From positions 198,863 through 262,862 of the forward strand of contig JBPOGI010000007.1 in the NCBI GenBank assembly GCA_051251855.1: a stretch of 64,000 nt of DNA, given 5' to 3'. Numbering within the stretch: the stretch's first letter is position 1; each line of letters opens with the position of its first letter. The notes beneath the pieces were generated by a model. It was not told the DNA's origin. It worked only from the letters and a program-made list of their open reading frames with translations, and made no database searches. The translations under genes and the position numbers were made by a program. Shown in pieces: positions 22,160-64,000 of this stretch. This DNA is from Roseibacillus sp. (GTDB lineage Bacteria; Verrucomicrobiota; Verrucomicrobiia; Verrucomicrobiales; Akkermansiaceae).

Positions 22160-24979
22160 TTATTTCCAATTCACCCTGACCCGTTGCTTCTCTGCCGAGA
22201 ACTCAAGAGACCTCCCCCTTGAACCGTTTGATCTCAGCCGAGTCTCTCTAATTCTTCTCCAATTGCCTCCCTGTTTTTCCTCAACTATAAAGTCCAGAAA
22301 AGCTTCAGGTTCATTTTGCGGCTCCCCGTCCAAGGCCACAAAAACCTGAGAGTGGGGGTCCAGAATGACCTTCATCGAACCTAGTAAGAATCGAATGGGG
22401 TTGTCCGTTTGATTATGAGCAAAAAATCCTCCCTCTACATCCCCGACAACTTCTGCCACCAATTTCCGTAATTCAACCCGCTCTTCATTCTTGCTCTCCT
22501 TCTGTCCCAATAGCCGAAGCACCAGCTGAGAATCTTCACCCAAGGCTCCACGCAGTCCCATCCCCCAAAGAGCCACCCCACTCGCGAACTGAAAGTCCCC
22601 ATCCGCCTTCGTCCAAGACTTCGCGTCCCCCTGCAAAACAAACTGCTGCAACTTACTGACCTCCCCATCCGGCGCTTTGTGCCGCAACTTCACAGTCATC
22701 CAGTCCGGAGAATCATCCTTAGGGCGCACCTCTACTTGCTCTTGATATTTCAAATCATCCACTTCAGGCCGAACCGTATCCTTCACTTCCACCGGAACAA
22801 CCTCATAGAAAGCCGTCACCTGATGGCCTGAGCCAACATCCCCCGCATCCACCATATCATTATTGAAGTCCTCTTTCTTTAAAACCCGGTTGGCATATCC
22901 AATCAAACGATACTGGCCCACCTTGGCAGGATTGAACTCTACTTGAATTTTCACATCCTTCGCAATCGTCACCAGAGTTCCCGTCAACTTCTCCAAGAAT
23001 ACTCGACGCCCCTCGGCCAAACTATCGACGTAGTAGTAGACTCCATTACCGTCGTTGGTAATCGCCTCCAACATCGAATCATTCAGATTCCCGCGACCAA
23101 AGCCACACACGCTCAAGAAAACACCATCCTGCGCCTCCTTCTTCACCAACTCTACCAAAGCCTCGCGACTGGTCGTTCCTACATTAAAGTCCCCATCCGT
23201 GGCTAAAATCACGCGATTGATTCCCCCCGTCACAAAGTTCTCCTTCGCCAAGCGATAGGCCAACTCAATCCCTGCTCCGCCATTCGTCGAACCTCCAGCG
23301 GAAAGTCTCCCGAGCGCTGCCGCCACCTTCTCACGACCACCCTGGCCCATTTTCGTTGGCTCCAACGCCACCCCTTCACTGCCAGCGTAGACCACAATCG
23401 CCACCCGGTCCTCTTCTTGCAACTCTTCTACTAACAATCCTAAAGACTCAACAAGAAGAGGGAGCTTGTCCGAATCCTGCATCGAACCCGAGACATCAAT
23501 CAAAAAAACGAGATTAGCCGCTCCCCGCTCATCCTTCTTGATATCCTTTCCCTGCAAAGCCACCCGCACCAGATTGTGCTTTGGCTCCCAAGGACAAGTC
23601 GCCATCTCCAATCCCACGCCGAAGGCCTCACCGTTGTCAGGCTGGGGATAATTGTAATCAAAATAGTTCACCAACTCCTCGATCCGCACCGCATCTTTGG
23701 GCACCGCCACACCATCTCTCAACATGCGACGAATGTTGGTGTAGCTCGCGGTATCAACATCGACTGAGAAAGTCGAGAGAGCCTCCTTCAAAGGATTCTT
23801 CCACGGCTGGTCGGTCAACTCCGCATATTTCGAGCCAGGCTCGCTATCTAGAATCATTGCTCGGTTTGCATAAGCTTGACCTCGTATGTTCAAGTTGCGC
23901 ATCTTCGCTCTCTCCTCTGCACCTCGCCCCCAACCATCCCCAAAGTCAGACGGCTTTCCAAAGCTTGGCAACTTTGCCAGAACCTTTGGCGCGGGAGAGC
24001 TTGGTTGAGCGGGACGCCTACTCGCATTCATAGCTATCGCCTCCATCTTTTCCGCTGGTGCTGCCTCAGCAATCGCTCCAAATCTCCTCAAAGCCACTTT
24101 CTCCGAGGAATGCTTCAACTTGGCCTCCTGGAGCTGCGCAAGCGCCGACTCATACTCTCTTTCCGCTTCCTTATAGTCGTGCATCTCTGTGGCCAATTCA
24201 ACCAACTCCGCATCCTTCTCTTCCCTCGTTCCTTCCATCACAAGCAACTGCTCCGAAATCATTTCATAGTTAGTACGAAGACCTTCCCTCAACGTTCCAA
24301 CCGAACTCTCCAGCTCTTCTTTCAAACCATTGAGCCTATTCTCTTGAACCACTATCGACGGGTGCCTTTCACCAAGCCCTGAAGCCTTCAACTGCTCCAA
24401 TTCACCTTCCGTCTTCTCATACTTCTGGTGCAAACCTCGAACCGAATTATTATCCACTGGCAACTCCGCCGCGTAACGAAGGACTTGTTCGTCATCAAGC
24501 GTCTCCATTCTGTTGAGGTAAATTCCATACTGATCGCGATTCTTCTTCATCTCGAAGGCGTTCTTCTCAGCCATCATCTTTAACTGAGTCTTAGTTAACT
24601 GGGAACTATTGCTGGAACTATGAAAATGGGGCCTCCCCGTGATTCTCACGATGGTATCGAGCACCTTCCTCTTCGCCTCCACCTTTTCCTCCTGCGCCCT
24701 AATCAGCGCGTCCAACTCTGCAAGGCGCGCCTCTGCTTCTGCCATCGACTCCACAGCCAGAGTGGGTGGCTCGCTCGGCACATCCTGTCCTTTCTTGGAA
24801 TACAAAACCGCTATTGCGGCAAACAAGACCATCGCCGCAACGGCGAGCACAGTCCTCACAAAATTACCCCTTCTGACTTTGGATTTGGCATTCGTGTCAA
24901 CTCCCTCAGCCAAGTTTACATCACTCTCCCCGCGCAGCAGCGCATCCATCAAACGGTCATCGATCTCTTCTTTTTTCAT
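22160..24979 (-). CDS. Membrane-anchored anti-sigma-like protein with coiled coil, vWA domain and DUF3520-type C-terminal region (YfbK-like)
   Basis: A short cytoplasmic N-terminus and one TM helix (TVLAVAAMVLFAAIAVL) lie 48 bp downstream of an ECF sigma gene. LSTFSVDVDTASYTNIRRML..., NLVFLIDVSGSM (vWA MIDAS) and ILATDGDFNVG are characteristic of the YfbK vWA/DUF3520 family. Confidence 0.75.
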   Translation of the reverse strand: MKKEEIDDRLMDALLRGESDVNLAEGVDTNAKSKVRRGNFVRTVLAVAAMVLFAAIAVLYSKKGQDVPSEPPTLAVESMAEAEARLAELDALIRAQEEKVEAKRKVLDTIVRITGRPHFHSSSNSSQLTKTQLKMMAEKNAFEMKKNRDQYGIYLNRMETLDDEQVLRYAAELPVDNNSVRGLHQKYEKTEGELEQLKASGLGERHPSIVVQENRLNGLKEELESSVGTLREGLRTNYEMISEQLLVMEGTREEKDAELVELATEMHDYKEAEREYESALAQLQEAKLKHSSEKVALRRFGAIAEAAPAEKMEAIAMNASRRPAQPSSPAPKVLAKLPSFGKPSDFGDGWGRGAEERAKMRNLNIRGQAYANRAMILDSEPGSKYAELTDQPWKNPLKEALSTFSVDVDTASYTNIRRMLRDGVAVPKDAVRIEELVNYFDYNYPQPDNGEAFGVGLEMATCPWEPKHNLVRVALQGKDIKKDERGAANLVFLIDVSGSMQDSDKLPLLVESLGLLVEELQEEDRVAIVVYAGSEGVALEPTKMGQGGREKVAAALGRLSAGGSTNGGAGIELAYRLAKENFVTGGINRVILATDGDFNVGTTSREALVELVKKEAQDGVFLSVCGFGRGNLNDSMLEAITNDGNGVYYYVDSLAEGRRVFLEKLTGTLVTIAKDVKIQVEFNPAKVGQYRLIGYANRVLKKEDFNNDMVDAGDVGSGHQVTAFYEVVPVEVKDTVRPEVDDLKYQEQVEVRPKDDSPDWMTVKLRHKAPDGEVSKLQQFVLQGDAKSWTKADGDFQFASGVALWGMGLRGALGEDSQLVLRLLGQKESKNEERVELRKLVAEVVGDVEGGFFAHNQTDNPIRFLLGSMKVILDPHSQVFVALDGEPQNEPEAFLDFIVEEKQGGNWRRIRETRLRSNGSRGRSLEFSAEKQRVRVNWK

Positions 24980-25027
24980 CGTCTTCTCCTCTTAAAAATT
25001 ACTTTGCGTCCTTGCGGTTCAAAAATT

Positions 25028-25555
25028 CTATCTCGCTAACTGCAAACACTCCTTCAAAAGCGCCCTCGCCCTCTCCAGCCTCTTTCTCACTGTCGCCGCC
25101 GCTATCCCCAGCCTGTCCCCCACCGCCTCACTCTTCATCCCCTCGTCATAACTCAGATTGATCACCTCCCCCATTTCCTCGGGTAACTTCTCGCGGCACT
25201 CTGCCAATTCATCAAAGACCGCAGGTCGCTCCACCAAAGCTTCCATCTTCGCTTCCAAGTATTCCAAATCCTCGTTCGCAAACTCCAGCTTCCGCCCCTG
25301 CTTGCGGCAAACGTCCTTCCACTTATTCCGAACAATCCCCCGTAACCAAGAACCGACATCACGAGTAACATCGAACCTCTCCATCCCTTTCCAAGCCGCC
25401 ACCAACGACTCCTGCACGACTTCCCGCGCCACTGACTCGTCCCGCAAGAGCGTGCGGGCATACACCAGCATCATATCCTGGTGCTCACGTGCCACTTGCC
25501 CAAATACCGGGCGACTCAATGCTACCTCTTCTTTCATTACTACTACGCCACTCAT
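25028..25555 (-). CDS. ECF-type RNA polymerase sigma factor
   Basis: Region 2 (ARTLLRDESVAREVVQESLVAAWKGMERFD...SWLRGIVRNK) and region 4 (GMKSEAVGDRLGIAAATVRKRLERAR) are present. Start set to the internal ATG 25555; the longer ORF to 25693 adds an implausible hydrophobic leader. Confidence 0.75.
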   Translation of the reverse strand: MSGVVVMKEEVALSRPVFGQVAREHQDMMLVYARTLLRDESVAREVVQESLVAAWKGMERFDVTRDVGSWLRGIVRNKWKDVCRKQGRKLEFANEDLEYLEAKMEALVERPAVFDELAECREKLPEEMGEVINLSYDEGMKSEAVGDRLGIAAATVRKRLERARALLKECLQLAR

Positions 25556-25774
25556 AACGTCACCCCCTATTCGCCGCAGCCTCACAAACTGTGACAAAAG
25601 AATGAGAAAAATCTCCGAAAACGACAAACCAAGGCCCACCAATGAAAAAAAACTTAAGAAATCATGACTTCTTAAAAACTCGAACGATGTCAAAAAGAAG
25701 ACAAGACTACCCTTGTTCCTTTGTTAATCCCAGTTGTAACGCCTATCGACTAACTAACGACTTCTATACCCACC

Positions 25775-34122: not shown

Positions 34123-34296
34123 TACGGAAACCTCAGAATTTGAACTGCAATTTCTGCTCCTTTTTATAATGGAGCCACCCCAAAATTCGACACATTGTAA
34201 ATACAAAGGATATTTAATCAAGGTCTTGCAAACGGCTCGTAGATAGTTATAAGCTCCCGCAAATTCCTTTCTCTCACTCAAAAAGCCCCCTCTGAC

Positions 34297-34938
34297 GTGG
34301 TAAAACTCAAAATAGCTCCAGAATTCGCACCAGAAACTTCAGATTTATCTGAGCTTGATGACGCGACCCTCGTAGCTCAGTGCCAAGCTGAACTGCCCGA
34401 TAACCTTACCGCTTATCGGGAGCTCGTAAAACGGTATGAGGGACTGATATTCAATACGTGCCGACGAGTGATCGGCTCTCAGGAAGACGCCGAAGAAGTT
34501 ACTCAGGACACCCTTCTTCAGATCTTTCACAAGATACATCAGTTCCAAGGACGCTCATCTTTTAAGACATGGCTGTATAAAATTGTGCACAATTACTGCC
34601 GTAACCGCATCTCTAAACTTGCAAGGAAACGTGAGGGCCAAAATTCTTACGAAGAACATGCCGCAAATGATGAGGACGATCGCGAGGCTAACAACCGACG
34701 CGCTGCGCTCTCTCAAGCCGTCGAGGAAGCCCTCGGCAAACTAAAAAAATCAGAGCGTGAGGTCATTGTGCTGAAGTTTATGTCCGGACTCACTCTGCAG
34801 GAAACTGCAGATGTTTTAGGCGTGAAGCTCAGTGCGGCCAAAATGCGACTTTATCGGTCTCTCGAGTCCTTTAAAGAAGCCTACTCACGAATTGATAACG
34901 CCCCCCCCGTCCCCAACTTCCATACCACAGATGACTGA
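34297..34938 (+). CDS. ECF-type RNA polymerase sigma factor
   Basis: Region 2 (DAEEVTQDTLLQIFHKIHQFQGRSSFKTWLYKIVHNYCRNR) and region 4 (LTLQETADVLGVKLSAAKMRLYRS) are present. GTG start. Confidence 0.85.
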   Translation: MVKLKIAPEFAPETSDLSELDDATLVAQCQAELPDNLTAYRELVKRYEGLIFNTCRRVIGSQEDAEEVTQDTLLQIFHKIHQFQGRSSFKTWLYKIVHNYCRNRISKLARKREGQNSYEEHAANDEDDREANNRRAALSQAVEEALGKLKKSEREVIVLKFMSGLTLQETADVLGVKLSAAKMRLYRSLESFKEAYSRIDNAPPVPNFHTTDD

Positions 34939-35182
34939 AGAAACATTCAACCCCGACGACTCCGTCTTCAACGACCTCTTTGCTGAGGCCGGCTGGAATG
35001 ACGTTGCTAAGGCTCCCCCCAATGAGCGCAGAGTCGAAGAGATCACTCAACGTGCCATCTCCGAGACAATCGTCAAAGAGTCGAGCTCTTTCCTATTCCT
35101 AGGCTTCAGTTCTGCCCTTTCAGGGATTTTTGCAGCCTTCTTTGGCTGTATCAGCGACAACGACGAAGACTACAAACCTTGA
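34931..35182 (+). CDS. Putative cognate anti-sigma factor (small single-pass membrane protein)
   Basis: ATG 34931 overlaps the sigma stop codon (ATGACTGA). The product is 83 aa with a C-terminal TM helix (FLFLGFSSALSGIFAAFFGCI). There is no zf-HC2 motif, so the assignment rests on position only. Confidence 0.45.
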   Translation: MTEETFNPDDSVFNDLFAEAGWNDVAKAPPNERRVEEITQRAISETIVKESSSFLFLGFSSALSGIFAAFFGCISDNDEDYKP

Positions 35183-35221: not shown

Positions 35222-36169
35222 ATGATCTTCGCGCAAACTCCTCCGCCAACGAACCCTGCTGCCACTGAGTTGGTAGCGAAAACTGCCCAGACAATCCAAG
35301 GATCGGGTGAGCAAATCACCGACCCCCCCCCTGGATTTTCACTGAACTACATCTTTGAAAAACTCCGAGAAGCCTTTATTGAAATGGCTGACGGAGCGAT
35401 CAGCGCCCTGCCCAATCTTGTCATTGCAGGCGTTCTCTTATTCGTCGGTCTCATTGCCGCCAAGGTCATCCGCGCCGTCCTCACCAGCACCTTCAAGAAA
35501 ATCAATCTAGATAGTGCATTCGATAAGATGGGGCTCACCGAGATTTTCTCCAAAATCGGTCTCAAGGCCGGCCCCAGCTCAGCAATCCCCAAGCTTCTCT
35601 ACTGGCTCATCCTCCTCGCTTTCATTAAGGTAGCCGCCGACAAGGCCGGAATCGAAGACATCTCCACTCTCCTTGATCAAATCATGGCCTTCTTGCCCAA
35701 GGTGCTGACCGCCTCGATCATTCTTTTGGTAGGCTTCATTGTTGCCGACTTGATTCAGAATGCAGCCTTCCGCTCGCTCGATAATATTGGGCTCGAATAC
35801 GCAGGCAGCCTCTCTCGCATCCTTTTTGGCTTCATCTTCATTCTCGTTCTCACCGTTGCCTTTGCCCAATTAGGCATTGAGACCGAACTTCTCAACTCCT
35901 CTGTAAAGATCGTTCTAGCAGGTTTGGCCCTCGCACTTGCGATTGCGCTCGGCTTGGGATTGAAGACCCTTGCCGGTCACATCGTCGCAGGGGTCTATGC
36001 ACGCGACCTCTACAAAATTGGAACCGAGATTCACTACGACGACCTTCCGGCCAAGGTCTCTGGGGTAGGCCCCCTCACAACCAAGCTGACTCGGGACGAT
36101 GGCACATTCGTGATTATTCCTAACACCATTATGGTCAACGAAGTCATCCGCGGTCGCACCGAAAACTAA
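35222..36169 (+). CDS. MscS-family / conserved-TM-helix mechanosensitive channel-like membrane protein
   Basis: Repeated TM-helix units (LPNLVIAGVLLFVGLIAAKVI; LPKVLTASIILLVGFIVADLI) are followed by a C-terminal beta-domain motif (GTFVIIPNTIMVNEVIRG). ATG 35222 is preferred over TTG 35204. Confidence 0.65.
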   Translation: MIFAQTPPPTNPAATELVAKTAQTIQGSGEQITDPPPGFSLNYIFEKLREAFIEMADGAISALPNLVIAGVLLFVGLIAAKVIRAVLTSTFKKINLDSAFDKMGLTEIFSKIGLKAGPSSAIPKLLYWLILLAFIKVAADKAGIEDISTLLDQIMAFLPKVLTASIILLVGFIVADLIQNAAFRSLDNIGLEYAGSLSRILFGFIFILVLTVAFAQLGIETELLNSSVKIVLAGLALALAIALGLGLKTLAGHIVAGVYARDLYKIGTEIHYDDLPAKVSGVGPLTTKLTRDDGTFVIIPNTIMVNEVIRGRTEN

Positions 36170-36196
36170 CGTTTTCAGACAAAGAAAAAAACCGTG

Positions 36197-36222
36197 TGAC
36201 TTATTCGCAGATCTGCGCGTCT
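36197..36222 (+). promoter_or_regulatory. ECF-sigma-like promoter motif, copy 1 (TGACTT-N15-CGTCT)
   Basis: TGACTT at 36197-36202, a 15-nt spacer, and CGTCT at 36218-36222. The first RNA hairpin begins exactly 8 nt further on, at 36231. Confidence 0.45.
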
Positions 36223-36230
36223 GTATGAGT

Positions 36231-36304
36231 GTCCCAGCAATGGGACGTGCGTTGTTGTTCCCACGAGCGGGGGTTGGTTTCGACCAGCCCTCGCTCACTT
36301 TTTT
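36231..36304 (+). ncRNA. Putative small RNA, copy 1
   Basis: Hairpin GUCCCA-GCAA-UGGGAC (36231-36246). Invariant linker GUGCGUUGUUGUUCCCAC (36247-36264). A 14-bp terminator stem with a UUCG loop (36265-36296), then ACUUUUUU. Confidence 0.6.
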
Positions 36305-36343
36305 AAGACACGTGCTCTAGACGAAAGTTTCTTAGAAACGCTG

Positions 36344-36369
36344 TGACTTTTTACCAGGGCCGTGTGTCT
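36344..36369 (+). promoter_or_regulatory. ECF-sigma-like promoter motif, copy 2 (TGACTT-N15-TGTCT)
   Basis: TGACTT at 36344-36349, a 15-nt spacer, and TGTCT at 36365-36369. A hairpin begins 8 nt further on, at 36378. Confidence 0.45.
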
Positions 36370-36377
36370 ACATTCAC

Positions 36378-36474
36378 GTCCCAGAGATGGGGCATGTTAT
36401 ATCCCAGCAATGGGATGTGCGTTGTTGTTCCCACGAGCGGGGGTTGGTTTCGACCAGCCCTCGCTCACTTTTTT
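36378..36474 (+). ncRNA. Putative small RNA, copy 2 (extra 5' hairpin)
   Basis: An extra hairpin GUCCCA-GAGA-UGGGGC (36378-36393) comes first. Then AUCCCA-GCAA-UGGGAU (36401-16), the same 18-nt linker (36417-34), the same terminator (36435-66) and a U-run. Confidence 0.6.
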
Positions 36475-36514
36475 CAAGATGCTTCCTTTTTACGCCGGCT
36501 GTCTAAAAACGGTG

Positions 36515-36540
36515 TGACTTATCCCAAGGTCTTCGTGTCT
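36515..36540 (+). promoter_or_regulatory. ECF-sigma-like promoter motif, copy 3 (TGACTT-N15-TGTCT)
   Basis: TGACTT at 36515-36520, a 15-nt spacer, and TGTCT at 36536-36540. A hairpin begins 8 nt further on, at 36549. Confidence 0.45.
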
Positions 36541-36548
36541 CTAGTTAT

Positions 36549-36622
36549 GTCCCAGCAATGGGATGTGCGTTGTTGTTCCCACGAGCGGGAGTTGGTTTCG
36601 ACCAGCTCTCGCTCATTTTTTT
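36549..36622 (+). ncRNA. Putative small RNA, copy 3
   Basis: Hairpin GUCCCA-GCAA-UGGGAU (36549-64) and an identical linker (36565-82). The terminator stem carries a compensatory G:C to A:U pair (GGGAG...CUCUC). It ends in seven U. Confidence 0.6.
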
Positions 36623-36921
36623 CAAGGGAGAGAGATAAATTGAAGGACTTCCAGTGGACGGATGCTCCTGCTTCTTATCCTTACTAAAGCAATCAGAACG
36701 AGGCATGACGAGGTCAATGCCCTCCGCCCCTCGCTATTAGACCTTTGACGACTAGACCTTTAAGGACTGGAACTGGTCGGTGCATTCCTGAGGCTCACCC
36801 CTTGCTTCGTCACTCGGATTTACCGTTCTTCTCCACTCTTGCTGGACGGCTAGAATGGAGAAGATGGAACGAGTTTATCGATTGAAAAGAGGCCGGCTTT
36901 GAACGCACTTCTTTTCCCCCA

Positions 36922-39900
36922 CTAGAATTGCGGCAAGGGATAGATGTGAGACCTCTTGTCATCTCCCGGCAAGACTTTCACCATCACTGCTCGATGTGAT
37001 TCAATCAAGAGGTCCGCGTCACGGTTCAAGAGTTGCGAGTCGTTCAAATCCAACCAGTAGTTGTAGGGTCCAGCGTCGGCCAACATGTATCCTAAATACC
37101 CCGTCTTATATTCGGTGACACCCACCTCATCAACAACACGGTCGCCTTTCCAGAACAGAAGCTCGGAACTCTTCGTTGGAGAAGCTCCGCCATCAAAACC
37201 AGCAGCCAAGGTAAGATCCCGGCCATTAGCTCCCGCCGGCGATTGGTCCAAAGGCCACATCGCCCCTGTGAGGTTGAAGCCTTCGTTCATGGGAGCCGCT
37301 TGGTCATAATCAGCAACCATTCCGAAAGTGAACTGCTCCACTGGAGGAATCGTCGCGGGAGCAAGCGCATCCCCAGAGCTCTTGGGATGAATCCAATTTC
37401 CCATCGAAGGATCCAGACGGAGGCCTCCCTGGTCAACTTGAGCGAAAGGATCAGTCACCCGAATCCATTTTGTATCGGGAGCCGTGCCAACCAACATCAA
37501 GGTTTCGAATCCAGGATCACTCTTTCGAACATCATAGAAGAGCAGTCGGGTCGCATCCGCTGGATTTGAGTCCTCTTCGCCGGCAAATGTCGTCGTCTTA
37601 TCGAACACTTCATCGATGGTGCGATAGCGAATCACTTCGTAGCTTGCTCCATTAAGTCCACTATCGGTGGGCAAACCATCGAGAGTATTCAGGGAGGCCA
37701 CTGCGGTGTCAAAAATATCACTATCGTTGAGAAGAGAGATCGTTCCAATACCACCGCCCAGAATATCGAAGCGGTGTCCTTCAAAAAGACCGCTCGTAAT
37801 CTGGAGATACTTTTCACCATTGCTTCCGACAACGGATGACAAGTCCACGTTCCCTACTGAGTCGCTAACATCTAAGATGATGTCTCCGGTTTCAGAGTCT
37901 GTCGCAAGGGTGAGAACCCCACTACCGAAGGTACCACTCAACTCAGGCTTCTCTTTAAAGGGAGAACTAAAGCTGAGGCACTGATAGTCGCCAAACAGAT
38001 TGCACTGCCAACCAAAGGTCCTACTGTAGAAGACTTCATCTGGAGTAATGGTCTCACTGCCGTCGACATCGATCTCCACCTTCATTCGAACAACTCCATT
38101 CTGAGGAGTCACCGGTCCGGTGGAATTTTGAATATCGCTATAGATAACTTTCTCGGCCTCCACTGGAACATCAGCGTCCGTGATGTTCACAGTAGGCGTG
38201 ATGTCAGACAAGTCACTCCACACAGTCGGGGTATCCAAGGTCGCAGCCCCTTGCAGGGTGTAAGTCACATCATTGAGACCACCACGACGACGCATGAACT
38301 GGGCAGTGACGCTTCCATCAGGAGCCTTGGTGAGACAGAACTCGCCGTGTCCGGGAAGTCCATCACCAGGGTTTAGGCAGAAGGCATACTCCAGAGCATT
38401 CGGATAGATATCTCCATCAGGATTGTCAGCCAAGCCATCGTTGGTTCCGGGGTTTGAGGTGTGGTCCAGCGCACTATCGTTCGTGTCTTGGAACTCGGTA
38501 TAAGTGCCGGACTTTGGAGAAGTGAAGCCAAAGTCATAACTCGCGTTGGCTCCTTCTCCTGATGGATCGGCCTGCTGGTCGGTGGCGGTTTGACCCTGGA
38601 TGGCAATAGCCGGCGCTCCCGCAGGGTCGTTGCTATCGGTCAAACTGGTGGCCGTTCCACTTTCGATCACAGTAGGCTCGGTTCCTGTCGGAGTTTGCAC
38701 GGAGAGAACATAAGTCGGCTCTGCGCCTGCCCCGTCTCCATTGTAGTCCTCGTCCATGAGCAGATTGCCAAAGTCATAGTGACCTGTTGTGTCTGTTACA
38801 TCAGTGAGAGAGACAACCGTTCCGTCCGGATAAGTGATGGTCAAGGTGACCACCGCACCTTCGATGGCAGGTTCGCCACTCTCTTGCACACCATCATTGT
38901 TGCTGTCGAACCAGACGTAGTTTCCAATCGCAGCAGGATCCTTGTAGTAGCCAAAGTCGGCGGTGTCATCGTCGGGATTTCCTGAGTCGATGGTCACAGG
39001 ATAGCCGCCGTCCTCCTGACTGTTGCCATCGGTGCCAGGATTCGGTCCCACGCTATGCCAGTAACCGTCGAGTTCATTGCCGTCGTCCGTCACCACCACG
39101 ATGTAGTCATCGAATGGAAGGCCATCGAAGAGATACTCCCCATTCGCGTCCGTAGTGGTTGTTCCAACCGCCGGATCACCTGAGTCCACAATCCCGTCGC
39201 CATCGATATCGCGATAGAGCACCACGGTGACGCCTTCGATTCCAGCTTCGCCACCGTCGAGAACTCCGTCACCATCGACATCATTCCAAATGGTCGTTCC
39301 AATGCTTCCTCCGTCAGTCGAAACATAACCGAAGTCTTGGTCCACATTATCCGGTGCTCCACTGGTCAAAGTGACCTCGCTCTCTGAATCAAGTCCCCCA
39401 TCGTTGTCGAAGGTATTATCAAGGGCTTCCAAGACGCCACCCGGGTCAAAGTTGCTGTCAGCAATCTTCACCGTGTAGTCGGCGCCGGCAGCACCGCTGC
39501 CATCATCAAGAGGTAAACCTCCGAAGTAGTAGCTACCGTCAGGACCGGTCTCGGTCACTGCGATGAGCTCACCTTGTTCATCGTAGAGTTCGACCAACAC
39601 CCCGGGGAGACCCGTATCGGACTCGTTCTGGTCAGCGCCCCCATCGGCATCCAGCCAGACGTAGTTGCCAATCGAACCGGTCTCGGCCGCAGGCTGGAAT
39701 CCGAAGTCTTGAGCATCGTCATTCCGCGTCGTGGCATCGGTGGTGTCTAAGCTCAAGGTTGAGGAGTCATCCGTTCCACCATCGCTTCCGCTCTCAGTTG
39801 GAACCGGACTAAACTCTGGAGGCAAGGTCGAGGTATCGACCTGCACCGTGTAGGAGATGCCCGAGTCAGGATCGAGGTTCGGGAAATTGTAGTTTCCATT

Positions 39901-42900
39901 CTCGTCCGTAACGGTGGTCCAAGTCTCGGTTCCATCGGTCAAAGTAACCGTCACTCCAGCCAAGCCAGGCTCATTCGCATCTTGGGTGCCGTCACCATCA
40001 AGATCAGCATAGATGGTGTCGCCAATGCTACCGACAGGTTCACCAACAGTCGCGGGAGGATAGCCGAAGTCTTGGTCGAGGTCGACCGGTGTTCCGCTGC
40101 TCACAGTCACCGAGCTGCTACTGTCTCCATCATTCTCTGGGTCTCCAGTTGGAGCCGCATCATAGCCATCTGGCAAGGTCGTGGTATCGACTTCTACGGT
40201 GTAATCTCCTAGAGGTAACTCTGGGAAGAGGTAGTTTCCGTTCGAATCCGTAACCGTGGTCGCAATCAGAATCGTGCCAGTCACATCGTAGAGATTGACC
40301 GTGATACCGGGAAGCCCCTGCTCGCCGGCGTTCTGGCTACCATTGGAATCGTCGTCCGCCCAAATGGTATCGCCAATCGCGCCCAAGGTTCCATCAGCTG
40401 GGTAGCTAAAGTCTTGCGCTCGGTTATCCGGAGCGACATCCGTGAGAAGCACCGGACTCGAGGAGTCGTTATTGCCATCACTATCGTGTGTCGCAGCGGT
40501 CTGATAACCAGCGGGAAGAGTCGCGGTATCGACTTCGACTACGTAACCACCGAGTGGCAGCCCGTCAAAGAGGTAGTTCCCGTTCGAGTCGGTCACTGTA
40601 GTTGCGATGATGTCGTTAGCATCGACAGAACCGTCGCCATTCACATCATCCGCGAGGCCATCACCATCGTCATCGGCATAAAGATTGACCACCACATCGG
40701 CGAGCCCAGGCTCGTTCCCTTGAGTGGACTGGTCGCCTCCGCTGCTATCGAGGTCTCCCCAAACGGTATCGCCAATGGAACCGAGGGCTTCACCTGAAGT
40801 GTAGCCAAAGTCCTGATCGTCTACGTCGGGAGTTCCCGCATCAATCGTAGTCGCGCTCAAGTTCGGAGTGCCTGCGACGCCATCGGCATCATAGGTTTGC
40901 TCAAGGCCACTTAAGACTCCATCAGTATCGTTCACCCAGACGATGTAGTCATCATAAGGCAAGTTATCGAAGATGTAGCTTCCATCGCTGGCAGTAGTGG
41001 TCGTGTTGATGATGGGCTCTCCCACATCCCAAACTCCGTCTCCATCGAGGTCATCGATCAAGCTCACCGTCACTCCGCCGATCCCTGGCTCACCCGCATC
41101 TTCTACCCCGTCTCCATTGAGGTCATTCCAAACGGTGTCGCCAATGCTTCCGAGAGGAGCAGTCACTTCCGGCTGATAGCCAAAGTCCCCATTGAGGAAG
41201 ACATCTCCTGGAGCCAGCACGATAGGCTCGCTCTTACCATCATTGGCAGAGAAAGCGGTATCCGTTTCTGCAAAGTGATCCGGATCTCCCGTCTGAAGGT
41301 AGTCGCTTCCCAGAATATCATGACTCGCAGTCGCGCTATCGGTCACCTCAACGACATAGGCATCAGGAACCAAACCATCGAAGTAGTAGCGACCATTGCT
41401 ATCGGTCGTCGTCGTGCCAACAAGGTTATCATAGACGCCATCACCATCATGATCATTGTAGAGGCTCACCTCAACACCCGCGACGGGCGCTTCGCCATCA
41501 TCTTGAATGCCATCACCATCGGCATCGATCCAGATGAAGTCTCCCAGAGCCGCGACCTCCGCACCGGCAGTCGCCGTCGGGTCATTCACCTCACCCGCAG
41601 GATTGATGTTGTAACCAAAGTCCGCCGTAGAGTTGTCCATCGGCTCAGTTCCACCCAGAAGCACTGGGTAGCCATAATCACCTGCACCGGGGTCATCGGA
41701 ATCATCCTGATTGCCAAAGTCGCCACCCGAATTGGTGAAAGGGCTTTGGGTAAAGCCAGTGGGTAAGGTCGTCTCATCGACGTTCACATAATACTCCCCC
41801 GCAGGAAGGTCAGTGAAGAGGTATCCCCCATCGGCATCCGTGTAGGTAGTAGCCACCACGTTGCCGTCGCCGTCATAGAGGTCGACTTTCACATTCGCGA
41901 GACCCGGCTCACCATCATCCTGATAGCCGTTGCTGTCCTCATCATGCCAAATGTAGTTACCAATCGTTCCAACCGGAGGACCAATGAGTCCAAGGTCAAG
42001 GTCGGTATCGCTATCACCCGCTGCCAAAGTGACCGTCTGGGTACGACCCGTCATCACATCCGCATCACTGTCGGTGTTGGTATCGGCAACCGTATCATCG
42101 CCATCGGCGTTCTGCTCGGTAGGCCCGTATCCGTAAGGCAAGGTGCTGTAGTCAAATTCCACATAGTAGTCACCGGCCAAGAGGTCATCGAAGAGGTAGT
42201 TTCCTTGGGCATCGGTCGAAGTCACGCCAACCACCGTGTCGGTGGCCGCATCATAGACCCGCACAGTGACACCCGGAACTCCGGACTCGCCGGGATCCTG
42301 AAGGCCATTGCCGTTGCCATCAATCCAGACAAAGTCACCTAGGGAGGCCAAGTCTTCACCAAAGTTGAAGTCCACTCCGCGCTCACCACCCGCAAGGGTG
42401 ATTCCGGTAATGGTATCCGAACCTGCCGTCCCTTGGTCAGCAGTAGTGCTGCTGGGAGAAGCAGTGGTATCAACAAGGTCCCCTGCGTCCGTCGTGGTCG
42501 AGAACCATCCTTCAGGTTGCGTCTCGGTGACATCGTAAGTTCCAGGATTGATTCCCGCGAAGCTGTAGTTGCCATCGTCATCGGTGACGGTGGTCAGCTC
42601 AACAGCGTTCCCGAAGATATCGGTTCCAGTCAAAGTGATGGTCACGCCAGGAATACCCGCCTCGGTGAGGTCGAGGTTTCCAAGATTGTCCGCACCGGCG
42701 TCGCCATCGGCACGGTCGTCATCGTGATAGACCGTTCCGCTCAAGCTCGCGAGTTGCTCTAGAATCACATCAACCTCTGCTGGGTCGCTGTTGTCGCCTA
42801 AGTCGGTCTCCGCACTAGTCGTTGCAATGTTCGCAATATTGACCTGAGTCTTCTGCCAATTGGAAGTCATGTAGGCCTGGTCAACCGTGAAGGTCACGGT

Positions 42901-45900
42901 GACGGAACCAGTAGCTCCCGGCGTTAAGATTCCTGCGTTGTAACTAAAGTCATTGGCTGAGCCAAGTGTGCCCGGCGTTGCCGACTGAATCACCAGACCA
43001 TCGGGCAAGGTATCCGAGATGACCACGTCCGCGGCATCGCCGTTACCATTGTTGCCATAAGTGATGGTGAAGGACCCACCTCCGTATAAGTCGACCACGG
43101 CGGTATCAGCCACCTTCTCAATCCAGACGTTAGCCAAGCCATTGGCATCGGTAATAACGGTCAGCGCGCTGTCATCGTTATTATCGTAATCGCTCTCCTG
43201 TCGATCGTTCGCAATCGTAACCACGTTGTTGAGGCTGTCGCCGGCCACGCCACCAGTTTCGGTGACCTGCACAGTAAAGCTTCCACTCGCTCCGGTCGCT
43301 TGGTCGCCGAGATTCCAAATCAAGGCCGTCAAACCACTGCCCTCGTAATCCGCATCTACAGTTGGTGAGCCACTCGAGCTCACGTAAGTCGTATTAGCGG
43401 GTAGAATATCGGTCACCACTGCGTTTAGCGCTCCCTGTGGTCCGAGGACCTCCCAAGCAATATCATAGTTGATGGTCTCGCTTGCTCCCTCTTTAACCGC
43501 TCCGGTGTCTACCAGCTTGCTCACAGCCAAGTCTGTTAGGCGCAGGTTGATGGAATCTTCCGCCGTATTATTGGCGGTGTTGTCATCGATCTCTGGGGTG
43601 CTCGTCGCAATTGAAATGGTGTTATCAATAGTGCTCTGACCAACGGGCGCAGGATCGTCCACCATCACCTGGAAGGTGAAGCTAGGCACTTCTTCCACCA
43701 CATAAGTCGCACGCCAAGAATTGAAGCAAGCCATCGCTGACTCATCGGTGCTGGTCATGGTCACCCGCAAAATCATTTCCGAATTTGCAATATCGATAGA
43801 TGAGATATCAGCAAAACCGTCTTCGAGTTCGGCCGGACCAAAGAGAGTCGTGGTGTCGGCTGCGTTTCTCAACTCAAACGTCGTCGTTACCGCATCGTCT
43901 GCTTCGACGCTGACAAGAAGTCGGTCCCATTTCGTCAACGTTCCTGCGGCAACGACCGGATAGTCTTCAGTGACAATCGTCTCGTATGCTTCGAAACCTG
44001 AACGCAATTTCGCAACAATGACTCCTGGGCGAGTGGCATCACTTCCTTGGCTCACTATTCCGAAAGTGGCAGTCGCGCCCCCCATACCATCGTAGACATA
44101 AGTTGGATTTGTGATTCCAGGTGAATAGTTCACCCCTGCGTTGAGCTGACTTCCGTAGAAGAGCTCCAGAATGCCGTCTCCATCGATGTCGTAGCTATTC
44201 ATTCGCTGCCCACCATTTTGACCTTGGCGGAAGATGTATCCATTTCCTTCGATGGGACTCAGCTTACAATACTCCCTCAGAGTGCCATCGGCATTGGGGT
44301 AGAAAATGTAGGTGGCTCCACGGTTGCTGGCATTTCCTGATGTGTTGACTGAAGAGGTAATATCATCATCGTTCGCCGCCGAGACCGCAAACTCACTCAG
44401 TCCATCGCCATCCAAATCGCCGACAGCCGCAACTCCGTATCCGAAGTTATCATTGGCATCCAAAGCCAGAGCGGGAGTGGTTAGATTCGAAATCTTACTC
44501 ACCTTTTTAAGTTCACCCGTAGTCTCGAGAAGAACGATATATGCCGCCCCTGTCGCAGTATATCCATCATCGTCACTCGAAGCTCCAACCACCAGGTCCT
44601 CCGCTCCGTTGCCATCCAAATCTCCAACAAAACTCAAATCGAATCCGAACAAGTCGCCGGAATCCAAATAACCACTCAGTTCCGCACTACGAGCCGTCTG
44701 CATCTTGATAAAACTCGTAACATCTCCTGTCATGTGGCCATTGATGTCTCTTTCCAGCCAGAAGAAGTAGTATCCTCCCCGCGAAGAATCCAGGCTCACA
44801 TCTCCTGCAACCAAGACGGAATCACCGCTACCGGCAAAGTCCTCAATGTAAGTGAGTCCTCGTCCAATTCCCACGGAACCCTGATCGTCAGCTCCGGTCA
44901 CACCACTGGCGGTAACGAAGCCACCAGTTCCAGAAACTATCTTCTTCAAGTCCTTCAACGATCCATCCGTATCTAGGAACAAGAGATAGACCGCGCCACG
45001 GCCCACGTTTCCAACATTCGTTCCATAGGCTCCAACCGCGAGATCAGGGATTCCATCGCCGTTCACATCGCCGATTGGCTCCAAGGAATATCCAAAATAG
45101 TCAAAGGCTGAGAGACCGGCCAAAAGACCACTCGCGGCAGCCGTTCCCTCCGCAATTTCAACGCTAGATTTCACGGAGCCATCAGCATTCATGAAGTTGA
45201 TCAGAACGGCTCCTTGATTCACATTGACCAAGTCCATCTCATTGGATTCATCCAAATCACGGAACGGAGAACCGACTGCGTAATCAATCACGCCATCATT
45301 GTCGATATCACCCACGGCATGATAGGTGACTTGATGGGAGCGTGTGTGCGCTCGATCATCGGTAACATTGGGGATATCATTATCAACGTTTGTGTCAAAG
45401 GCGACGTGTTGATCGTAACCAGCATCGAGTGCGCTCACTTCAGACAAAAATGACTCAACCTCCACTTTAGGCAGTGGTTCGAGACAAAGAACAGCGCCAG
45501 GGCTTCCTGCCGGCTCTTTTCTAACAAAGACCCGATGGATGGTGTCCGCAGAATCATCACCCAATACATTGTCCAGTTCCCAGTCATCACCATTGGCACG
45601 AATGGCCCAGTTGGCTACACCATCCTGATAGAAAGGAAGTTCGGTGAGCGCATAGTCCCCCTCATCATCATTCTCCTCTGTCGCAAGGGCCGGAATATTC
45701 GCGGTATGGCCAGGCACACCAACCCAGTTTCCATCGTAATGAAAGTGATTGAAGTCGCCTGTGCCAGTCTTCACATAATCATTGCCCCTCATGAAGTCAT
45801 CGGTCGTCCGAATGTTTACCACTCGCTCATGATCGGAAGTCCGTCCTTGGAACAGCATCGTGTCAAAACCAAGGGCGGCAGCCAACCCATTGCCAGCATG

Positions 45901-48900
45901 ACCCCAGTTCTCTGACGCGCTCTCGTCATCACCCAAGGCGTTGGAAGCAAAGAGCGGCAAGTCGTTCGTGCGCACTGCGAGTTCGGGATTGGTTCCTCCC
46001 GCATGCACGTAGTTGAGAATCATCAACCATCCACCACCATCGGTATCACCATCGACGTATCCCTGGAAGGACTTACCATCAATATTGAACCAATAGACTC
46101 CGGTAGCCACCCCTCCGAGACCAGCAATGTCAGTGAAGGGATCATACTCAGTGCCCGTGCCAAATCCATTGCTACCAGCAAAGGTCGCGGGAGCGGGAAG
46201 ATTGTCGAAGAGGATTTCGAACCCAGTGGGGTCAGAAGGATTGGGGCTCCAAATAGCAGTAGCACCATCAGGAACCATAAGAGAACCCGGAACGTAGCTG
46301 GTGCCCGCTGGAATGACTTCTGAAATCACCACATCGTCAGCGGCCGCTTTACCGGTGTTATTATACTCAATGGAGTAAGTGAGAACTTCTCCCGCTTCGG
46401 TCCAAGTCTCGTCTTGATCGGACTCATTGACCACGCTCTTGCCAATACTGATCTCAGGGCGATAGATGCGGGTGGAGACTTCGTCGGCATTGTTCGCAAG
46501 GAAATCTTCGGCGGGGTCGGCATCGGTTTGGTTATCGACAACCAATGTCGTATTGTTCGTCACGGTATCACCATCAGCAGCAGCGTCAGAGACATAGCCC
46601 TGGAGGGTGAAGGTGACAATCGCTCCTACCGGCACTCCGATATTGCGATAGTAATCAGTATCAACGGCGTTAGCAGTGGTGCCGAGATACCAGGTCACGG
46701 TATCTCCTCCAGCGGGAGAGAGATTGTCCAAGGTCGCACTAATCGGGAAAGTCACGGGAGATCCGGTTCCATCTTCCAGAGTCACACTCGCGCCATCATC
46801 ATCGGTCGCCTCAACTGTTGCGAAACCATTGAAGGCAGTCGGATGCGGAACAAAATTGGCCGGCAGAACATCTTCCACCTTCACCCCGTAGGCAGTCTGA
46901 GTTCCAGTATTGGTCAGCTCAATGGTGTAGGTAATCGGGTCGCCAGGACGCAAACCGGGAACACTCCCCTCGGCACTAGCTGACTTCGCAATCGCCATAT
47001 CCACTCCGGGAATTTGGGTCATCGCGGTGGCTGCATTGTTGTTTGGTCCATCGGTTGGATCCTCAGGGTCGTCACTCTCTTGAGCACTGGTGGAAATCGT
47101 AGCGGTATTGGTGTAAGCCGTTCCAGGAGCGGTGCCCCCCGGAATCGAAGTGCTCACCAGAATATCAGAATCACCGGCATTGGCAGGAACAGTTCCCACC
47201 TCAAAGGCAATGAAAGTGACAGTCGCTGTCGGGGTAGAACTCCAACCGAGGCCAGAAGTCCCGGGCGTGAAGACCGGCGCGGCGGGGGCATCGGAATAGT
47301 AGGCTACCACTCCAGAAGGAAGAAGCACGCTATTGAAAGTCAGACCCGACGGAATGGCATCAATGATGTAAACATCAGGAGCTTCGTTATTCGTTCCATT
47401 GCTGTAAGAGATCGTCCAAACGACAGTCTCTCCAGCTTGGGCAACGCTCACTGCAGACTTGGTGATTTTAGGATCGGGGAATGGAAGCACCACTTCTTGC
47501 TCATCGGTGTTTCCATACTCGTTATCCTCCACATCAGAGGTTGTCACCTCTGCCACGTTCGTCAGAGTATCGCCTGCGGCACCTGAGACATCGACCTGAT
47601 AACTGATGAAAACATCGGCAGACTGCCCAGGGAGAACTCCCATGGCACCGCCATCTTGGGTCAAAGAGGTCCAATTGAGAACACTATCACCCCCAGTAGG
47701 GTCATCTAAAATAGCATAGCCCGGTGTGAGCATCTGGGTGCTCCCTTCCACGAAGGTCATTCCCGCAGGCAAAGTGTCGGTGATGACCACGTCGTTGGCC
47801 TCATTCAGACCACGGTTAGCCACCAACAGAGTAAAGGTGATGCGATCTCCATTCTTGGGCTCGGTCGTGCTGGCAATTTTACTGAGGGTCAGGTCCGGGT
47901 TGGCCACGGTAACCGGATCACTATCGCTCACAACGACAGCAGAGCGTGCGTTCGAAGCAAATCCCTGCACGGTATTGAGAACCTCAGTGCCTGAAGCGGT
48001 GGTGGAAAGCGGAACCACAACGAAGCTAACACGCCCTCCCTCACCGGTGAGCAAATCGCTCTTCAGCCCAGGAGAACCAGCAATAAGAACTTCAACGATC
48101 GATGAGCCATCTGCGTTCGTAGTGATGGTAACATTAGGATCAGCCTTGATATCAAGCTCACCGGCGGTCTGACCATTCGCAATCGCAACGTCATTCCACT
48201 CATGCCGAACTCGGCGAAGAGTAACATCCTTAGGAAGATAGTCGGTAATGGTGACAATATCATCGGTGAAGCCCGAGTTGTTAATATAGTCCACATTCCA
48301 AATGAAGCGCTCACCCGCAGTAACGAGTTCCTTGTTGCTAGACTTGGAAATTTGAAGACCAGGGAAAGATTCAACCGTGGTGCGCACCTCATTGCCGACA
48401 GCCTGCAAGTTGGTGTCGGAGAAGATGACGAGCTCGTTGAAAATCACGGTGCCCTCAGGAGAGCCATCGGTTCCCACCGTTGTGCCGTTGTCATCATTGA
48501 CCACGGTGAAAGTCACGGTCTTGTAGGCAGCCGAGACATCAAGCTGAGGAGGCGAAAGAGTCGGGTCGTCTACCTTATAGGCAATCCAAGTTGTTTGGTC
48601 GCCGAAGGGACTTGTCCAAGTATCGTCAGATGGATCACTTGGCGTGCCATTGTCATCCTGAACACCAGGAGTGAAGTTTGCACTAATCACGCTGAAATCG
48701 ACCGGATTGAGAACACTGATTTGGTTAGCCGGCATCGAAGGTGGCAACTTATCAGTGAACCAGATTTCCTCGCCATTAGGCGCAGTCGCTTCTGAGAAAG
48801 TCGTGCGGAAGGGAATGCGATCCACCACCCAAGAATTGACAGAAGTCGCGGTGCCAACGTTGCGGTAGTTGACCTCGTAGGTCACTTCGTCACCAGTGCC

Positions 48901-51612: not shown

Positions 51613-52054
51613 ACTAAATCTTATATGATTACTTATTTATCTTAACTAAAAGGAACCCCGCAATGAAGCCCAATCACCTCTCGAGCAACCCGATGACACA
51701 ACTAACTCCAAACTGACGTAAAGTCTTAGCGACCAAGCCTTCCAGAAAAGGCAGCCCACATCCCTGTAAGGGCCTAGAAAACTCGTGCCTTGTTAGAGCA
51801 GAATGGCGAGGATTTGGTCACCCCCAGTATACCTACACCTTTAAGTTAACTTTCAATCCTCTCTACTGAAGCGAGAGAAGGTTGAGCTCATCTTGAATGC
51901 CGGTTGAAGTCATCACTTTAAAGTGAGCGATCATCTCACAACCAGCTCAAGCCAAACTCACAGGCCTCGTTAGAACCTGTTAGTCTTCTTTTGACTCCAT
52001 AAGCAAAGACGGCCTAAACCACGCCTTCTGAAATGCAACTGGGAACTCAAGGCC

Positions 52055-63528: not shown

Positions 63529-64000
63529 AAGGAAGGGGGGACTTGGGGGATTTGAATGAAACACCTCGACATCACATCAGCTTCCCGAAGGCGGGAATTT
63601 GCTGCGCAGCTCGAAGCATGACACTATTTTATTTAATTTTAAAAAATAGTCAACGTTGATGTATTTTTTTAAACTCCGAACTTTTCTCACAAGAGAACAG
63701 GATTTAACGTAACCAGCTAAAAAAGAGTGCTTTACCTGGAAAACCAAAAGAAAGAAAAAAAGAGCGGAAACAAAGAACGCGTCAACCCTAAGTATTTTTA
63801 TATAGAAAAAAAGGATCGCTCCGACAAAACATCCGAATTTAAAATGAATTTACATATAAAATATAATATCTAATTCAGCCGGAATGAAGAAACGGCAGGG
63901 AGAAAGCCGCATACCAACAGCCCCCATCAACCCTTGTGTCCAACATCAAAGCAGATAGCCCTGCGAGAAATATCAGCTCAGCAGGCCCTAGTTCAATCCT

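Follow-up and report, generated by a model that had tools for sequence, protein, structure and literature searches.

In a 64,000-nucleotide stretch of Roseibacillus sp. DNA (phylum Verrucomicrobiota; contig JBPOGI010000007.1, positions 198,863 to 262,862), hereafter the window, three small RNA (sRNA) units lie head to tail between 36196 and 36622, downstream of an operon that encodes a sigma factor of the extracytoplasmic function (ECF) class, a small membrane protein and an MscS/CmpX-like membrane protein. Each unit is preceded by the same two-box motif at the same spacing. Sequence comparison suggests that the units are three separate sRNA genes with ECF-type promoters, probably read by the sigma factor encoded by the adjacent operon (here called ECF34). 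We put the probability of this explanation as a whole at roughly 0.7.

An exact pattern search of both strands of the 64 kb for TGACTT-N15-YGTCT returned three matches, all on the + strand (36197-36222, 36344-36369, and 36515-36540). The expected number was 0.09, and none of 100 dinucleotide shuffles contained three or more matches. Matches with one mismatch stood at background level in the window (6 observed, 2.2 expected). A previous sequence-only reading of the window had described TGACTT-N15-YGTCT-N8 ahead of each sRNA unit, and this description proved exact to the base at all three sites. The base before TGACTT is G in units 1, 2, and 3, and the gap between YGTCT and the first hairpin base is 8 nt in every unit, the hairpins beginning at 36231, 36378, and 36549. 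In unit 2, this distance holds to an extra hairpin (36378-36393), and the hairpin common to the family follows at 36400-36415. The predicted promoters, all on the + strand, are P1 (36196..36222; GTGACTT, 15-nt spacer, CGTCT; predicted start G36231), P2 (36343..36369; GTGACTT-N15-TGTCT; predicted start G36378), and P3 (36514..36540; GTGACTT-N15-TGTCT; predicted start G36549).

The three units share one layout: the motif, 8 nt, a 5′ hairpin (GTCCCAGCAATGGGAC), an invariant single-stranded stretch (GTGCGTTGTTGTTCCCAC), a G+C-rich hairpin whose stem has 14 bp, and a T-run. The 3′ hairpin and T-run form a strong intrinsic terminator in every unit. Unit 1 (36231..36304, + strand, ~74 nt) consists of the hairpin GTCCCAGCAATGGGAC, the invariant single-stranded stretch GUGCGUUGUUGUUCCCAC, and a terminator (36265-36296) with its U-run. 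Its folding z-score was -5.1, and it scored 101 bits against the covariance model of the family, with covariation support. Unit 2 (36378..36474, + strand, ~97 nt) consists of the extra hairpin, the family hairpin, the putative seed, and a terminator (36435-36466); its folding z-score was -5.9. Unit 3 (36549..36622, + strand, ~74 nt) ends in a terminator at 36583-36614 and had a folding z-score of -5.3. Units 2 and 3 both matched the covariance model. Because every unit comes with a motif and a 14-bp-stem terminator of its own, the best reading of the sequence is that the units are three independent genes, as had been claimed from the sequence alone.

The extra 5′ hairpin of unit 2 (GTCCCAGAGATGGGGC) resembles an internal duplication of ~22 nt in which the promoter-to-hairpin distance was kept for the new hairpin. 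Open reading frames (ORFs) that overlap the units (36343-36687 and 36362-36517 on the + strand; 35915-36298 and 36545-36706 on the minus strand) were rejected as genes: strong terminators lie inside them, the unit lengths of 148 and 170 nt are not multiples of 3, and both copy number and indels differ between genomes.

Homologues of the sRNA were collected with its conserved RNA core and with a covariance model built from 13 units; the promoter boxes were used in neither search. Together they returned 19 units from 13 genomes or contigs: three in the window and the others in Roseibacillus persicicus, Roseibacillus ishigakijimensis, Oceaniferula spumae, and nine metagenome-assembled genomes (MAGs) or metagenome contigs, one of which held four copies and another two. 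Copy number ranged from 1 to 4 between genomes, and each copy had its own motif. Compensatory changes supported both stems of the fold. The invariant seed-like stretch GUUGUUGUUCCC was lengthened to CCCUCCC in relatives. Protein neighbours in the window showed 79-87% amino-acid identity to those in R. persicicus. None of the Rfam 15 covariance models matched the units at the gathering score; the best sub-threshold match was that of the terminator alone to ctRNA_pGA1 (24.5 bits; threshold 45). When metagenomes were scanned with the sRNA core, one of eight matches was a genuine homologue (L021) and the other seven were rejected as coding sequence. A covariance-model match in L024 was discarded because it was just a terminator.

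The two boxes were conserved between genomes in a way that the sequence between them was not. GTGAC stood in register with the hairpin in 16 of the 19 homologous units, and TCT occupied alignment positions 25-27 in 14 of them. In an alignment of 21 sites, non-homologous transcripts included, information content was 1.35-1.73 bits at T25/C26/T27 and GTGAC, versus 0.04-0.4 bits per position in the spacer (0.04-0.45 bits in the first 12 aligned units). G24 was present in 13/21 sites, T25 in 19/21, C26 in 20/21, and T27 in 20/21. The spacing between GTGAC and GTC was 18 nt in 20 of the 21 sites and 19 nt in the remaining one (unit 4 of L004). The conserved pattern was t-GTGAC-(W-rich)-N-(G)TCT-w-w-A-N4-T-G, the last G being the first hairpin base; its consensus form is tGTGAC(W)-N18-(G)TCT-wwA-N4-T/G(+1). 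The spacers had been described as unconserved. This was true across the other genomes; within the window, however, the three spacers are ~50-67% mutually identical (by eye), as for recent duplicates.

The strict motif (GTGAC-N18/19-GTCT) was also found ahead of transcripts without homology to the sRNA family: in a Luteolibacter MAG, a structured RNA of 190 nt (L027, 6855-7042; z -5.0); in L026, a structured RNA of 150 nt (3590-3746, minus strand; z -6.1); and in a Rubritalea MAG, an RNA in which CCUCC-like stretches occur five times (L116, 5265-5430). A relaxed form, GTGAC-N18/19-A(A/T)CT, precedes the gene of a small signal-peptide protein in four Opitutae (L104, L120, L112, and L114), and a pyrimidine-purine pair tends to occupy positions 35/36 even in these protein-gene sites. 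Because the motif precedes non-homologous transcripts, we assign it to the promoter and not to the RNA. The RNAs of L116, L027, and L026, different from the sRNA family, are strongly structured, contain C-rich (CCUCC-type) stretches, and lie beside the same sigma/channel module. In the four Opitutae, the GTGAC box is located 3′ of the terminator of the channel gene, and the start codon lies ~10-12 nt past the second box.

ECF promoters have spacers in the range of 16-18 bp and a pyrimidine-purine pair at the start (bioRxiv 10.1101/2020.06.23.168245). The 18-nt spacer between GTGAC and GTC is at the upper edge of that range or one base beyond it. The -10 box, (T)GTCT, holds the GTC core and has no A at the -11-equivalent position. 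At the predicted start, T35 was present in 17 and G36 in 20 of the 21 sites. The consensus of AlgU is GAACTT-N16/17-TCTNN (PMC7641640), from which GTGACTT-N17-TCTnn departs only at the first -35 bases. The motif thus fits an ECF-type promoter in its -10 core, its spacer, and its start pair, and to this extent the resemblance noted in the sequence-only reading holds; it does not extend to the -35 box, which is GTGAC and not of the GGAAC type. A CRP/FNR-type palindrome (TGTGA-N6-TCACA) was rejected as an explanation, since the second half-site is absent and T27 is conserved where the palindrome needs A.

The candidate cognate sigma factor is encoded by the first gene of the adjacent operon (ECF34, 34297..34938, + strand). 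It has Sigma70_r2 and r4_2 domains and is SigX-like: its best NCBIfam match was SigX (NF007222) at 146 bits, below the cut-off of 194, and the next family scored 108. The second gene (34931..35182, + strand; gene call and translation) encodes an 83-amino-acid protein with one C-terminal transmembrane helix. It is conserved between the sigma and channel genes, and none of the family models matched it; from its location in the CfrX position it is a candidate anti-sigma factor. The last gene (35222..36169, + strand) encodes a 315-amino-acid MscS/CmpX-like membrane protein that matched PF05552, a mechanosensitive-channel helix, in two stretches (E 5e-19). The operon has a sigma-70-type promoter, TTGCAA-N16-TATAAG (34226..34253, + strand), which both R. 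persicicus (L001) and L113 conserve and to which L003 has a near-match. Some two dozen verrucomicrobial loci share the three-gene operon, nearly always in the same order; in a few, for example L026, L027, L108, L118, and L121, no match to the small protein or to the channel was detected. Among the ECF groups, the one associated with a mechanosensitive channel is ECF102/SigX (PMC7826278). Two short-read Logan contigs (L123 and L124) carry an identical ECF34; L124 ends inside the MscS-like gene and L123 just after it, the latter end being consistent with an assembly break at the tandem sRNA repeats.

The motif lies immediately downstream of the sigma operon in most orthologous loci, whatever gene it drives. 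In 170 kb of more distant ECF34-orthologue loci, none of them a source of the 12 units whose alignment first defined the motif, there were six strict matches, every one intergenic, in the sense orientation, and within ~300 nt of the sigma/channel module; shuffles gave 1.9 strict matches at random positions. A further 673 kb around unrelated ECF genes contained one strict match, and none of those loci had a channel gene. The adjacency of motif and module spans two Verrucomicrobiota classes despite changes in the downstream gene, which may be a member of the sRNA family, another RNA, or a protein gene. In L026, one copy of the motif lies ~200 nt upstream of the sigma orthologue and another after a paralogue. 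The channel gene and the motif have a terminator between them in L111 and L112. Because the motif co-localises with the sigma operon across distant loci, the adjacent SigX-like ECF34 is its most likely reader, an assignment to which we give about even odds on the sequence evidence. Control by the ECF sigma factors of the window had been suggested for both of their genes; the co-localisation lends support to the suggestion for 34297-34938, and nothing supports the second gene (25028-25555) as encoding the cognate sigma. A strict match between the HD-domain and sigma genes in L003/L107 was not accepted as a site: it is antisense, unconserved in the window, and at chance level.

Several observations weigh against this explanation. 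The -35 box has GAC instead of the AAC usual in ECF promoters; other -35 boxes are used by some ECF groups, and GAC hence does not exclude the class. In two distant homologues (L108 and L118) the first box reads TTGAC and the -10 box is poor, and the homologue in L023 lacks GTGAC. The motif is absent from the 450 nt upstream of the sigma gene in 23 of 24 orthologous loci, being present only in L026. In the window, the GTGAC/GTCT motif was not found upstream of ECF34 or of the HD-domain gene. The usual ECF autoregulation by the motif was thus not seen, and the Roseibacillus operon has a sigma-70-like promoter instead; some ECF groups, however, lack autoregulation (PMC7826278). In R. ishigakijimensis (L013, 3586-3700), a perfect motif and sRNA directly follow the HD-domain gene, and the three-gene operon is missing there; an exact-pattern scan of the assembly for the ECF34 signature IVHNYCRNR gave no match, although a single substitution would escape such a scan. 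L004 has the channel gene and four sRNAs with no adjacent sigma gene. Finally, no terminator lies between the stop codon of the channel gene (36169) and P1, and read-through from the MscS-like gene may add to the transcription of unit 1.

Part of this evidence would be accommodated if the ECF-type or alternative-sigma motif were read by another sigma factor whose gene lies at some other locus, such as an RpoE/AlgU-like factor, and if its adjacency to the operon were inherited gene order. Such a reader would agree with the lack of an autoregulatory copy at the adjacent sigma gene in 23/24 loci, with the R. ishigakijimensis motif that has neither the operon beside it nor a match to the ECF34 signature in the assembly, and with the close parallel between the motif and the AlgU consensus (PMC7641640). 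However, the adjacency is kept in two Verrucomicrobiota classes though the downstream gene changes, L026 has the motif ahead of its sigma orthologue and again after the paralogue, and the signature scan of R. ishigakijimensis would miss a copy with one substitution. We therefore consider a reader encoded elsewhere unlikely.

Recognition by the housekeeping sigma factor, through a TTGACA-variant -35 box and an unusual -10 box, is very improbable. GTGACA agrees with TTGACA at 5/6 positions, the two distant homologues mentioned above have TTGAC, and A/T-rich tracts resembling UP elements lie upstream. However, a spacing of 17 nt gives the -10 hexamer GTCTnn. Judged by its bases, the motif cannot be a sigma-70-type promoter, because its invariant T falls where the essential A(-11) is required and because the sole TAnnn-like stretch, ~22 nt from the -35 box, is too far away. 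No match was found at the sRNA units in a scan for the sigma-70 consensus (TTGACA, 16-18 nt, TATAAT, in which A(-11) and T(-7) are diagnostic). The canonical TTGCAA-N16-TATAAG promoter 2 kb upstream indicates that the organism does use sigma-70-type promoters.

The sRNAs might also have no promoter of their own and be cut from read-through of the channel operon, in which case the boxes would be a processing or protein-binding signal. The absence of a terminator between the channel stop codon and unit 1 would allow this; however, units 2 and 3 come after terminators whose stems are 14 bp long, the motif of L111 and L112 also comes after a terminator, and both L013 and L009 have the sRNA and motif with no channel gene ahead of them. 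Moreover, neither box is part of the conserved RNA structure, and no covariation is seen in the spacer. We regard this explanation as highly implausible. That the identical spacing is a functionless trace of recent tandem duplication can be dismissed: the units are indeed paralogues and their spacers in the window are still similar, but shared descent of three duplicates is insufficient because the boxes persist while spacers and flanks are randomised over the 13 genomes or contigs, and the motif recurs ahead of unrelated transcripts.

If the units are separate genes under ECF-type promoters read by ECF34, the system might work as follows. The 83-amino-acid membrane protein and the CmpX/MscS-like channel would hold ECF34 in check. 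Membrane or envelope stress would be sensed via these two proteins, and the SigX-like sigma factor would then be released. The ECF holoenzyme would recognise GTGAC(T/A) at -35 and (T)GTCT at -10, with 18 nt between them, and would initiate at the G that lies 8 nt after GTCT and forms the first base of a protective 5′ hairpin. Each unit would yield an RNA of 74-97 nt ending at its own intrinsic terminator. The invariant single-stranded GUGCGUUGUUGUUCCC is presumably a seed for pairing with target mRNAs at purine-rich regions, which are probably ribosome-binding sites. Within the 64-kb window, a search for targets of this seed gave nothing convincing beyond the antisense strand of the sRNA genes. 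With amplification in tandem to 1-4 copies, each under a promoter of its own, the dose of the RNA would rise.

A more general proposal is also compatible with these data, one that we hold tentatively and with slightly less than even confidence: GTGAC(W)-N18-GTCT would be the recognition sequence of SigX-like (ECF102-like) sigma factors, and the module in Verrucomicrobiota would signal via a dedicated downstream gene, usually a hitherto undescribed sRNA with a C/U-rich seed that has reached 3-4 copies in some species. Neither Rfam nor the literature searched yielded a described sRNA or a mapped promoter from Verrucomicrobiota. If this proposal is correct, the regulon would be the first of the envelope- or membrane-stress sRNA type to be described for the Planctomycetes-Verrucomicrobia-Chlamydiae (PVC) superphylum, and it would provide a handle on the promoter specificity of SigX-type sigma factors, which is undefined in Pseudomonas (PMC7641640). 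The locus offers a testable promoter consensus, a candidate sigma factor and candidate regulators, and an sRNA family that is new and has a clear putative seed. R. persicicus KCTC 12988 and O. spumae NT6N are available as cultured strains.

The window does contain two ECF sigma genes, as stated in the sequence-only reading, with the refinement that the second is on the minus strand (25028-25555, ATG at 25555). It belongs to a TIGR02989-like family and is paired with a gene for a 939-amino-acid VWA/YfbK_C protein (region 22160-25693, minus strand). Just upstream of its ATG, TGTCACA-N16-CGAAT (25596-25569) resembles the promoter of another ECF class and is unrelated to the sRNA motif. A one-mismatch match to the sRNA motif at 24874 was rejected as a promoter of this gene because it is on the wrong strand and inside the VWA gene.

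Two giant genes are located on the minus strand downstream of the sRNA cluster, at 36922-51612 (4896 amino acids) and 54664-63564 (2966 amino acids). Both have internally repeated segments, and repeated motif-like matches occur inside the giant genes at 59601 and 57876. The gene for the 4896-amino-acid protein converges on the sRNA cluster, and L001 and L005 show synteny between its C-terminal part and the sRNA locus. GTGAC-N18-CTCT is present at 51795-51821 (minus strand), 209 nt upstream of the start of this gene (51612); it could be a further regulon member or a chance match, ~4 relaxed matches being expected in the window. A 15-nt tandem direct repeat, TAGACCTTTGACGAC / TAGACCTTTAAGGAC (36738-36767), occupies part of the interval that separates the sRNA cluster from the giant gene's end.

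The arrangement can be compared with three known types of system. MicA, RybB, and MicL are sigma-E-dependent sRNAs of Enterobacteria. Their promoters and other RpoE/AlgU promoters are similar to the motif described here in having two boxes, with xxACTT and TCTnn ~17 nt apart, and a start at a fixed short distance downstream. The sigma-E sRNAs are short, terminator-ended, trans-acting outputs of an envelope-stress sigma factor, as is predicted for the Roseibacillus units. In contrast, the -35 box here is GTGAC and not GGAAC, the neighbouring sigma factor is SigX-like and not especially near RpoE/AlgU, and the sRNAs occur in 1-4 tandem copies, have no Rfam match, and belong to the phylum Verrucomicrobiota.

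The Pseudomonas aeruginosa cluster cmaX-cfrX-cmpX-sigX-oprF is that of ECF102 (PMC7826278, PMC7641640, PMC8871633). It shares with the Roseibacillus operon a sigma factor whose best family match is SigX, a small putative anti-sigma factor, and a CmpX/MscS-type protein. The gene adjacent on the downstream side, oprF, is a target of the sigma factor; here, the downstream genes are sRNAs, whose status as targets is predicted. The order here is sigma, small protein, channel, unlike that in P. aeruginosa, and the sigma factor scores 146 bits against an equivalog cut-off of 194. No OprF-like gene was seen near the Roseibacillus operon, where the downstream + strand holds only sRNAs, the neighbours being unsearched for OmpA-like domains. 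The motifs of the two systems are not comparable, because the Pseudomonas SigX consensus lacks a precise definition (PMC7641640) and other authors did not find it (PMC3875570).

Tandem multi-copy sRNA loci are represented by CcsR1-4 (the 'cuckoo' RNAs) in Rhodobacter and PrrF1/2 in Pseudomonas. As in Roseibacillus, near-identical copies lie head to tail, copy number differs between relatives, and expression is tied to a stress sigma factor, a tie that in Roseibacillus is predicted. The CcsR RNAs all derive from one transcript by processing. In contrast, the units described here have no sequence similarity to the CcsR/PrrF loci, and each copy has its own predicted promoter and its own terminator. 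Action of ECF sigma factors through sRNAs is well known in Proteobacteria. ECF-dependent sRNA genes as such are therefore familiar; what is new here is the phylum, the RNA family, and the link to a SigX/CmpX-type module.

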